This document shows, piece after piece, positions 36,199-36,398 of a DNA stretch of 64,000 bases (positions within the stretch are counted from its first letter, which is position 1; every line of letters begins with the position of its first letter). Below the pieces are notes generated by a model that did no database searches, was not told the DNA's origin, and was given only the letters and a program-made list of their open reading frames with translations. Origin of the DNA: a virus (lineage: Duplodnaviria; Heunggongvirae; Uroviricota; Caudoviricetes); IMG/VR virus record IMGVR_UViG_3300037067_007156, positions 525,519 through 589,518 of that record, one strand, 5' to 3'. Made by a program: the position numbers and the translations under genes.

Positions 36199-36330
36199 AT
36201 GATGAGGTTCACAACATACACGACAGCTACAACCGCCCCCCAACAGGGAGCAGGTCAAGGCAGAACAGCGCAACCAAGAGGTTCGCAAGCTGAGTGTATT
36301 TTGTATGGCAATATTTCACCAAATATATAG
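36199..36330 (+). CDS. putative attenuator leader peptide 2 (43 aa, MMRFTTYTTATTAPQQGAGQGRTAQPRGSQAECILYGNISPNI)
   Basis: Translated by hand; GC-rich codons; 25 of codons 3-30 are T/A/P/Q/G/R; 3' part can pair with the terminator 5' arm. Confidence 0.8.
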   Translation: MMRFTTYTTATTAPQQGAGQGRTAQPRGSQAECILYGNISPNI

Positions 36331-36354
36331 CCGACTTCTCATTAAAAGGAAGGC

Positions 36355-36398
36355 ACAAAAAACCCACTCAGCGTAAAAGTTGAGTGGGTTTTTTGTTT
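36355..36398 (+). terminator. intrinsic terminator (attenuator) before tRNA cluster 2
   Basis: ACAAAAAACCCACTCAGC-GTAAAA-GTTGAGTGGGTTTTTTGTTT. Confidence 0.88.

Follow-up and report, generated by a model that had tools for sequence, protein, structure and literature searches.

Leader-peptide attenuators are known from genes for amino-acid biosynthesis, amino-acid transport or aminoacyl-tRNA synthetases. In enterobacteria some are multivalent, such as the thr leader (Thr/Ile) and the ilv leaders (Ile/Val/Leu), others are devoted to a single amino acid (trp, his, leu and pheA), and in E. coli the pheST attenuator, with pheM as its leader, controls phenylalanyl-tRNA synthetase. For tRNA genes, promoters are usually taken to determine the level of expression, and why phages carry such genes and how these are controlled are open questions. 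Our study concerns a short open reading frame (ORF), leader 2, which precedes tRNA cluster 2 in a 64,000-nt stretch of the Caudoviricetes virus record IMGVR_UViG_3300037067_007156; the whole stretch is referred to as the window, and positions are those of the window unless stated otherwise (Table 1). We consider it probable that this ORF encodes the leader peptide of a multivalent, ribosome-mediated transcription attenuator, which is predicted to gate the tRNA genes of cluster 2.

The general principle of leader-peptide attenuation is treated in PMC1183508. Like the attenuators of amino-acid operons, the phage element combines a short leader ORF holding regulatory codons with a terminator and an antiterminator that are predicted to be mutually exclusive and to share a common strand; the position of the ribosome would again decide between the two, slow decoding would lead to read-through, and several amino acids would be sensed at once. 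It differs from them in that the regulated genes would be tRNAs, closing a loop on decoding capacity rather than on amino-acid supply, in that each leader would sense 6–8 amino acids and three leaders would cover all 20, in that the carrier is a virus, and in that most of the phage leaders lack a conserved anti-antiterminator (1:2) helix. With pheST it would share the attenuation of a component of the translation apparatus that is sensed through cognate codons, but in pheST that component is a protein enzyme for one amino acid, whereas here it is the tRNA genes themselves. T-box riboswitches (RF00230) also let tRNA status choose between terminator and antiterminator ahead of translation-related genes; a T-box, however, binds uncharged tRNA directly, without a ribosome, and has a conserved Stem I and T-box sequence, whereas the phage element is an in-frame ORF. 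By its Rfam matches, the leader 2 element is not a T-box. At the Rfam gathering threshold the tRNAs alone were matched around leader 2, and the list of 33 matches for 36100–36560 at E≤10, which were below threshold and centred on the terminator hairpin, contained no T-box.

A short ORF, a run of cognate codons, an intrinsic terminator and an alternative antiterminator strand, as expected of an attenuator, are all present at leader 2, and the genes downstream are tRNAs rather than genes for biosynthesis, transport or aminoacyl-tRNA synthetases. These downstream genes are unlike those of any described attenuator family, and we therefore class the element as a variant and not as a member of a described family. 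A full-text literature search, to which subscription journals and the older work on leaders of E. coli tRNA operons lay largely outside, returned no paper on leader-peptide control of tRNA genes. If our reading is correct, the element would let the speed of decoding feed back directly on the synthesis of tRNAs, a loop for which that same body of literature yielded no described case in any organism.

Codon content of leader 2 and the three tRNA clusters

The peptide encoded by leader 2 is MMRFTTYTTATTAPQQGAGQGRTAQPRGSQAECILYGNISPNI, followed by the stop codon. The first-pass annotation of the window had counted 25 Thr, Ala, Pro, Gln, Gly or Arg codons among codons 3–30, and a recount gave the same figure (25/28), the exceptions being TTC, TAC and TCG. 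The codon variety that it had listed was present in full (ACA/ACG/ACC, all four GCN codons, CCC/CCA, CAA/CAG, GGA/GGT/GGC and AGA/AGG), as was the description of a GC-rich ORF in an AT-rich genome, with a G+C content of 0.55–0.62 over 36200–36289 vs 0.257 for the whole 640-kb genome. Its claim that the leader residues exactly match the specificities of the cluster holds for the seven tRNAs that can be assigned and does not extend to two tRNA-like matches without an anticodon. In one of these (37894–37968) the anticodon arm allows two readings, a stem of 7 bp closing a 6-nt loop or one of 6 bp closing an 8-nt loop, and the other (37565–37624) is possibly a tRNA that is truncated or lacks the D arm. 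Leader 2 samples each of the six anticodon types in cluster 2; this statement, like the other comparisons of codons with anticodons, was read by eye from the sequence and the tRNA output. Relaxed ARAGORN thresholds produced hundreds of false calls over the whole genome and were dropped, and the additional tRNAs were taken from Rfam and checked singly.

Nearly all of the tRNAs of this phage, as called by ARAGORN and Rfam, fall in three clusters, and every cluster is preceded by the same layout, in which the motif TGGAAAAAA-N14/15-TAA(A)TATATAA is followed by a short ATG ORF and this in turn by a terminator. Cluster 1 runs in the order Ser(tga), Trp, Ile(gat), Val, His, His, Phe, Lys(ctt), Lys(ttt), Ile(tat), Arg(acg), Ser(gct), and cluster 3 in the order Leu(tag), Asp, Asn, Met, Met, Glu, a Tyr-like gene, Leu(caa), Leu(taa), Cys, Tyr. 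The sets of the three clusters, {S, W, I, V, H, F, K, R(acg)}, {G, A, Q, P, T, R(tct)} and {L, D, N, M, E, Y, C}, overlap solely in Arg, which is divided by codon family, and their union comprises all 20 amino acids. Between codon 2 and the antiterminator copy described below, 21/25 codons of leader 1, 25/29 of leader 2 and 16/19 of leader 3 belong to the set of their own cluster, and each leader contains every amino acid of that set; in a leader-by-cluster matrix the diagonal values were 0.84–0.86 and the off-diagonal values 0.05–0.17. A six-frame scan of the 640-kb genome found the 21/21 run of leader 1 and the 15/15 run of leader 3 each to be unique, and stop-free 27-codon windows with at least 25 members of the leader 2 set at three loci. 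Composition alone does not set the leaders apart; position, coverage of the whole set and mutual exclusivity do.

The suggestion that the leader senses individual isoacceptors was supported in part, by comparison between leaders. Arg is written as CGC in leader 1, whose cluster holds Arg(acg), and as AGG, AGA and AGA in leader 2, whose cluster holds Arg(tct), and the Ile codons ATT and ATA are likewise split in a relative in the same way as the tRNAs. Cluster 2 itself has one anticodon per amino acid, and for this reason the synonymous sampling in leader 2 cannot separate isoacceptors.

Leaders and tRNA sets in related phages

A pattern search of IMG/VR located the motif at 96 loci, of which seven had ARAGORN tRNAs within 1.2 kb; in six of these seven, a short ORF and a terminator lie between motif and tRNA. 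Five of the six contigs were mapped as G001–G005 and their clusters retrieved, the contig of locus L026 being left out, and the resulting dataset comprised 16 leaders from six related contigs in about eight homologous families. The same promoter-like motif precedes the leaders in the relatives. G001 (421 kb) and G002 (675 kb) carry close homologues of leaders 1, 2 and 3, while in G003, G004 and G005 the tRNAs are partitioned otherwise and the leaders change accordingly. Thus SKHSKHSSFSSKWF precedes Trp/His/Phe/Lys/Ser, with Ile, Val and Arg absent from run and cluster alike, Leu-rich leaders sampling TTA, TTG, CTG, CTA and CTC precede four Leu isoacceptors, and NMVYNINDCIYNDK precedes Ile(gat)/Cys/Asp/Asn/Lys/Tyr/Val. 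The leader IENMIQEQMQQM, in which Ile is written as ATA, precedes Glu/Met/Gln/Ile(tat), and VNIATVAATATTPTTGGRPV precedes Pro/Ala/Thr/Gly/Val/Arg(tct). In G004, Val codons stand in the Gly/Ala/Pro/Thr leader and Val tRNAs in the same cluster, and in G003 and G005 the Glu/Met leader carries Gln and ATA-type Ile codons where the cluster holds the Gln and Ile(tat) tRNAs.

Over the 16 leaders, 253/344 codons matched the leader's own cluster, and every amino acid of the cluster was sampled in 16/16. When leaders and clusters were permuted within genomes, the observed match of 211/292 was attained by one arrangement in 20,736, which was the true pairing. The same design was seen in two GenBank records of huge phages. 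LR756501.1 has five leaders, one of which, FTPAPAVAFRRGTGTGTGTCVPAG, stands before Arg/Ala/Thr/Val/Gly/Pro, and among the seven of LR756502.1 are QQQQQQQ, which precedes four tRNA-Gln genes, and SSRSRSS, which precedes Arg-Ser-Ser-Arg; the true pairing was the best in both, the observed match being attained by 1/24 and 1/5040 permutations, respectively.

The match is specific to the reading frame, as 238/280 core codons of the 16 leaders belonged to the set in frame vs 77/280 and 70/280 in the shifted frames (0.85 vs 0.28 and 0.25). This bears upon the alternative that the element is a structured non-coding RNA, T-box-like or a small RNA, which acts untranslated and has an open frame as a by-product of its G+C content. 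Such an RNA would agree with a G+C-rich segment in an A+T-rich genome, with the fold z-score of −7.0 for the leader 2 region (although this comes mostly from the terminator), with the shifted frames of leader 2 being open as well and with the lack of a visible Shine–Dalgarno sequence at leader 2. It sits poorly, however, with the Rfam results given above and with the remaining leaders, most of which are A+T-rich and have stops in their other frames. An ATG and an in-frame stop were retained in 27 tabulated leaders (16+11), plus one by eye, and changes inside the runs were synonymous or within the set. We regard this non-coding alternative as extremely unlikely.

The conservation of composition among homologous leaders, which the first-pass annotation had proposed as a check, was seen at the level of single codons. 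The frame of leader 2 is kept in G002 with three synonymous changes inside the run, and among the homologues 17/19 changes at set-member codons were synonymous or led to another member, by a hand tally of the per-codon list that leaves out two synonymous changes at non-set codons. Counted over all codons, the changes were 11 synonymous, 8 member-to-member, 2 member-to-non-member, 3 non-member-to-member and 9 non-member-to-non-member. The contig of a diverged relative has 36247–36280 and the terminator in common with the window, from which we draw no inference.

The predicted switch and competing explanations

The terminator of leader 2 has a 10-bp G+C-rich stem (arms 36363–72 and 36379–88, T-run to 36394) with a folding energy of −18.0 kcal/mol. 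As had been claimed, GCTGAGTG (36289–96) pairs perfectly with 36365–72, being the exact complement of CACTCAGC in the terminator 5′ arm; 2/1000 shuffles of the upstream stretch reached a match of this length. The accompanying pairing of TTTTGT (36299–304) with the A-run was also recovered: pairing to 36355–62 is possible, and the fold uses UUUU:AAAA at 36359–62. A terminator was present in 16/16 leaders, as was an exact complement (6–8 nt) of the leader's own terminator 5′ arm, located 28–68 nt upstream of the arm and beginning at codon 19–31. Shuffled controls produced such copies 0–64 times per 1000, and the arms of unrelated leaders did so in 2/201 cross tests. There are at least six distinct arm sequences, each with its own copy, and these predicted arm/copy pairs amount to compensatory covariation. 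Comparison supports the anatomy first proposed for this locus, that is, a leader ORF matched to cluster 2 with a terminator behind it and an antiterminator strand within it.

The codons of the set are placed in a regular manner with respect to the copy. Set membership was 14–16/16 at −4 to −10 codons from the copy and 10/16 at −3, compared to 2–3/16 at the two positions next to the copy (−2, −1) and 31/139 between the start of the copy and the stop. This drop in matching codons 3 codons before the copy fits the footprint of a ribosome. A ribosome with its A site at least 4 codons upstream would leave the copy free and a nearer one would cover it, and the regulatory codons therefore sit where a stall would be productive. 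When the nascent RNA was folded at minimum free energy (MFE) in the state that precedes synthesis of the 3′ arm, 14/16 ribosome-free leaders formed the antiterminator, as did 15/16 leaders carrying a ribosome in mid-run, and it was lost in 16/16 with a ribosome at most 3 codons from the copy (0–3 stray copy pairs). With the ribosome at the stop codon, it was lost in the five short leaders whose stop lies 1–11 nt past the copy. Switching with ribosome position was as expected in most leaders other than leader 2.

Under the attenuator reading, RNA polymerase would start at the motif and a ribosome would follow on the leader. Fast reading of the Thr/Ala/Pro/Gln/Gly/Arg(AGR) codons would bring the ribosome over the copy while the terminator is being synthesized, the hairpin would form and transcription would stop at about 36394. 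At a codon made slow by a scarce tRNA, the ribosome would pause 4 or more codons short of the copy; the copy, left free, would pair with the terminator 5′ arm, and polymerase would read through into the tRNA genes. The shortage of any single tRNA in the set would suffice as a trigger, and the circuit would be a negative feedback on decoding capacity in which the output corrects the input.

A number of our results weigh against this reading. In a length-free segment score, leader 2 ranked 4, after low-complexity protein repeats, leader 3 ranked 2 and leader 1 fell outside the top 6; moreover, 14/25 and 11/25 core codons of leader 2 matched the set in the shifted frames vs 23/25 in frame. Taken alone, therefore, leader 2 owes part of its match to base composition. 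As the 16 leaders represent about eight homologous families, the counts overstate independence, and some matches are low: G005_a (7/19, from an incomplete contig), G005_c (6/19), W02_c (6/22) and W02_f (4/25). In LR756502.1, the antiterminator duplexes of 4/7 leaders were no better than 42–82/300 shuffles. Co-transcription may also be less than complete, in that the Arg(tct) genes of cluster 2 sit 0.7 and 2.9 kb beyond the main block, behind ORFs, and in cluster 1 an intrinsic terminator stands directly before tRNA-Ile(tat); not all matched tRNAs, therefore, need be co-transcribed. In the simple fold model used here, leader 2 itself switches less cleanly than most others. With a mid-run ribosome its copy was still paired to 36216–28 in the MFE fold, and with a ribosome on the stop codon the antiterminator still formed; the stop lies 32 nt past the copy, so that a terminating ribosome does not cover it. 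The helix 36216–28/36288–99 holds the leader 2 copy unless a ribosome covers it, and it is not conserved in G002, where a GCT>GCA change weakens the 36216–28 strand. The antiterminator of leader 2 did form in the fold with the intervening RNA masked, and that of G002 formed without a mask.

A further point of this kind lies between the terminator and tRNA-Gly, where TTGACA-16-AATAAT at 36474–36501 agrees with the sigma-70-type consensus at 11/12 positions and could drive the cluster 2 tRNAs independently of the leader. Together with the 144-nt spacer of this phage, in which it lies, this site would favour an independent small gene, made up of the ORF and a terminator that just ends its transcript, with the tRNAs expressed from their own promoter. 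Sites of this type are, however, about as frequent as in shuffles (40 found vs 35.2 expected), and in G002 the terminator and the first tRNA are 21 nt apart and lack such a promoter between them. The peptide is kept as a set and not as a sequence, with 7 member-to-member changes in leader 3, and neither the arm copy inside the ORF nor the match to the tRNAs would be explained. We find this small-gene explanation highly unlikely. The spacer also holds two direct repeats of ~20 nt (TATAACC..ACAGG.CTATA), and its region differs in the contig of a relative.

It could also be that translation of the leader is coupled to the terminator, as the attenuator reading has it, but that the leader serves as a general reporter of translation or as a late-expression timer of tRNA synthesis. 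The folding results lend themselves to this, since the nascent RNA of 14/16 leaders adopts the antiterminator without a ribosome, such that any loss of translation would induce read-through, and since a ribosome at the stop codon leaves the copy uncovered in leaders 1 and 2; late timing would be in line with a promoter motif in common with the major head gene. A general sensor, however, needs no codon set fitted to each cluster, and sets that move with the tRNAs and matching codons that end 3 codons before the copy would be left unexplained. We judge such a role to be unlikely.

In the codon-specific attenuator that we prefer, the three leaders would between them keep watch on all 20 amino acids, split into three blocks, and the motif in common with the head gene would place control at the time of highest translational demand. 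A wider interpretation, which we offer tentatively and hold to be possible rather than probable, is that the leaders are a surveillance of the whole genetic code: spelling out 20 amino acids and nearly every phage-encoded isoacceptor, they would register when any one host tRNA is lost or exhausted and switch on the block with the missing tRNA. Cleavage by a host anticodon nuclease, the phage's own host shut-off or late-gene demand would be examples of triggers. If this is true, tRNA homeostasis in large phages would follow a general principle that has been overlooked, as the same design occurs in the largest published genomes (LR756501.1 and LR756502.1), with leaders re-partitioned as tRNAs moved. 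More generally, attenuation by these leaders would reveal which codons a phage treats as limiting, their covariation across huge phages would provide natural swaps of specificity, the design could be ported into reporters, and an annotation rule would be gained for the tRNA regions of large phages, including the unannotated LR756501.1 and LR756502.1.

Promoter-like motif, genomic setting and neighbouring genes

We infer that the bipartite motif, which recurs before all three leaders, is a promoter. The genome has a fourth copy, which stands before the gene for the major head protein (phrog_138, 8e-26), and the motif is therefore read as a strong, probably late, phage promoter. In one IMG/VR contig (L058, motif 1201–1234, minus strand), the motif stands ~20 nt upstream of a tRNA-Gly without leader or terminator, and can therefore, it appears, drive a tRNA directly as well. 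A conserved upstream peptide (MEKxDxFxLIYKK) was considered for the motif and rejected, as its frame either stops after 8–31 codons or runs on into that of the leader, and in >12 copies GGAAAAAA and TAATATATAA are free of synonymous variation. Nearer the upstream gene, TATATTTG is a weak candidate, so named from TAnnTTTG, which we take to be the host-type (Bacteroidota) −7 box consensus; clearer copies of the box, TACATTTG, stand before leaders 1 and 3.

Table 1. Positions of the leaders, their predicted switch elements and the tRNA clusters (window coordinates unless stated otherwise)
Feature	Position	Strand	Remarks
Analysed stretch (window)	525519-589518 of virus record		Record of 639,979 bp with direct terminal repeats
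Promoter-like motif before leader 1	912..945	+	Same motif as at leader 2
Leader 1, MLNSFSHISSIVSSVKRHKWFISHNGTGLYMSKNILGC, then stop	976..1092	+	21-codon run, all S/F/H/I/V/K/R/W
Terminator of leader 1	1127..1155	+	Antiterminator copy CTGGAC at 1055-1060
tRNA cluster 1	1181..7238	+	ORFs interspersed
Candidate Bacteroidota-type −7 promoter box TATATTTG	36106..36113	+	Weak; inside 3′ end of upstream ORF
Promoter-like bipartite motif TGGAAAAAA-N15-TAATATATAA	36141..36174	+	Common to all three leaders
Leader ORF 2	36199..36330	+	43 codons; ATG at 36199, TAG at 36328-30
Regulatory run of leader 2, codons 3-30	36205..36288	+	25/28 Thr, Ala, Pro, Gln, Gly, Arg(AGR)
Possible anti-antiterminator strand	36216..36228	+	Pairs with 36288-99 in fold; not conserved in G002
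Antiterminator 5′ strand, GCTGAGTG + TTTTGT	36289..36304	+	Copy of terminator 3′ arm
A-tract and terminator 5′ arm	36355..36372	+	Strand common to terminator and antiterminator
Terminator 3′ arm and T-run	36379..36394	+	From fold
Spacer, terminator to tRNA-Gly	36397..36538	+	144 nt; absent from G002 homologue
tRNA Gly(tcc), Ala(tgc), Gln(ttg), Pro(tgg), Thr(tgt)	36539..36949	+	ARAGORN, Rfam
Short tRNA-like match, 60 nt	37565-37624	+	Rfam 30.2 bits, barely above threshold; directly 5′ of tRNA-Arg(tct)
tRNA-Arg(tct)	37631..37704	+	ARAGORN, Rfam
tRNA-like gene	37894-37968	+	Rfam 49.7 bits; no anticodon assigned by ARAGORN
tRNA-Arg(tct), second copy	39882..39956	+	ARAGORN, Rfam
Leader 3, MQLCNLNMDNYLNLEDDSSLGRVCLYIS, then stop	Genome 395139-395053	−	Precedes cluster 3
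tRNA cluster 3	Genome 394983-384315	−	ARAGORN, Rfam
Motif before major head protein gene	L114:249-316 (genome about 626948)		Head gene L114:317-1951

By the major head protein, the closest relatives were unannotated huge phages in GenBank, with 62% identity to LR756501.1 (735 kb) and 51–53% to LR756502.1, LR745206.1 and LR756504.1, and identity to the Prevotella Lak phages was 28%. A blastn search of 35900–36560 against 50,697 phage records returned no match. Just 5′ of leader 2 are two paralogous ORFs of 145 aa (34625–35062 and 35700–36137, + strand), one of which has a weak match to DUF4160; no relatives of the upstream 145-aa ORF were found in IMG/VR. Among the tRNA genes of cluster 2 is a homologue of the PorP/SprF type IX secretion membrane protein (38415–39389, + strand; 1.4e-58), which hints at a Bacteroidota host, and near it a thioredoxin (37994–38317; 2.2e-29). 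Beyond the cluster, a stand-alone 64-aa homologue of the C-terminal domain of the RNA polymerase alpha subunit (40449–40643, + strand; 4e-10) adjoins a sigma-70 region-2 protein (40727–41314, + strand; 1.6e-10), and either could recognize the A-rich promoter motif.

Leader 2 ends in TAG, and recoding of this codon was considered and rejected. In 447 long ORFs the stop codons were 378 TAA, 36 TGA and 33 TAG, and opening TAG raised long-ORF coverage merely from 0.726 to 0.742; code 11 was therefore kept. Opening TGA raised the six-frame long-ORF coverage from 0.726 to 0.805, and the sole tRNA-Trp of the genome has the anticodon CCA. Two adjacent tRNAs of LR756501.1 (L130:786–937) have the anticodon CTA and one tRNA of G002 (L104:1674–1747) has TTA, suppressor-type anticodons that might mean stop-codon recoding in these phages.

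Protein-coding genes were also seen around the tRNAs of a relative. In G003 a homologue of ribosomal protein L7/L12 (L106:5583–5963; 5.8e-20) lies between a leader terminator and the tRNAs, and the predicted attenuator would therefore gate a ribosomal protein gene too; a cold-shock-domain protein (L106:4235–4423; 7.7e-15) precedes another tRNA of the same contig.

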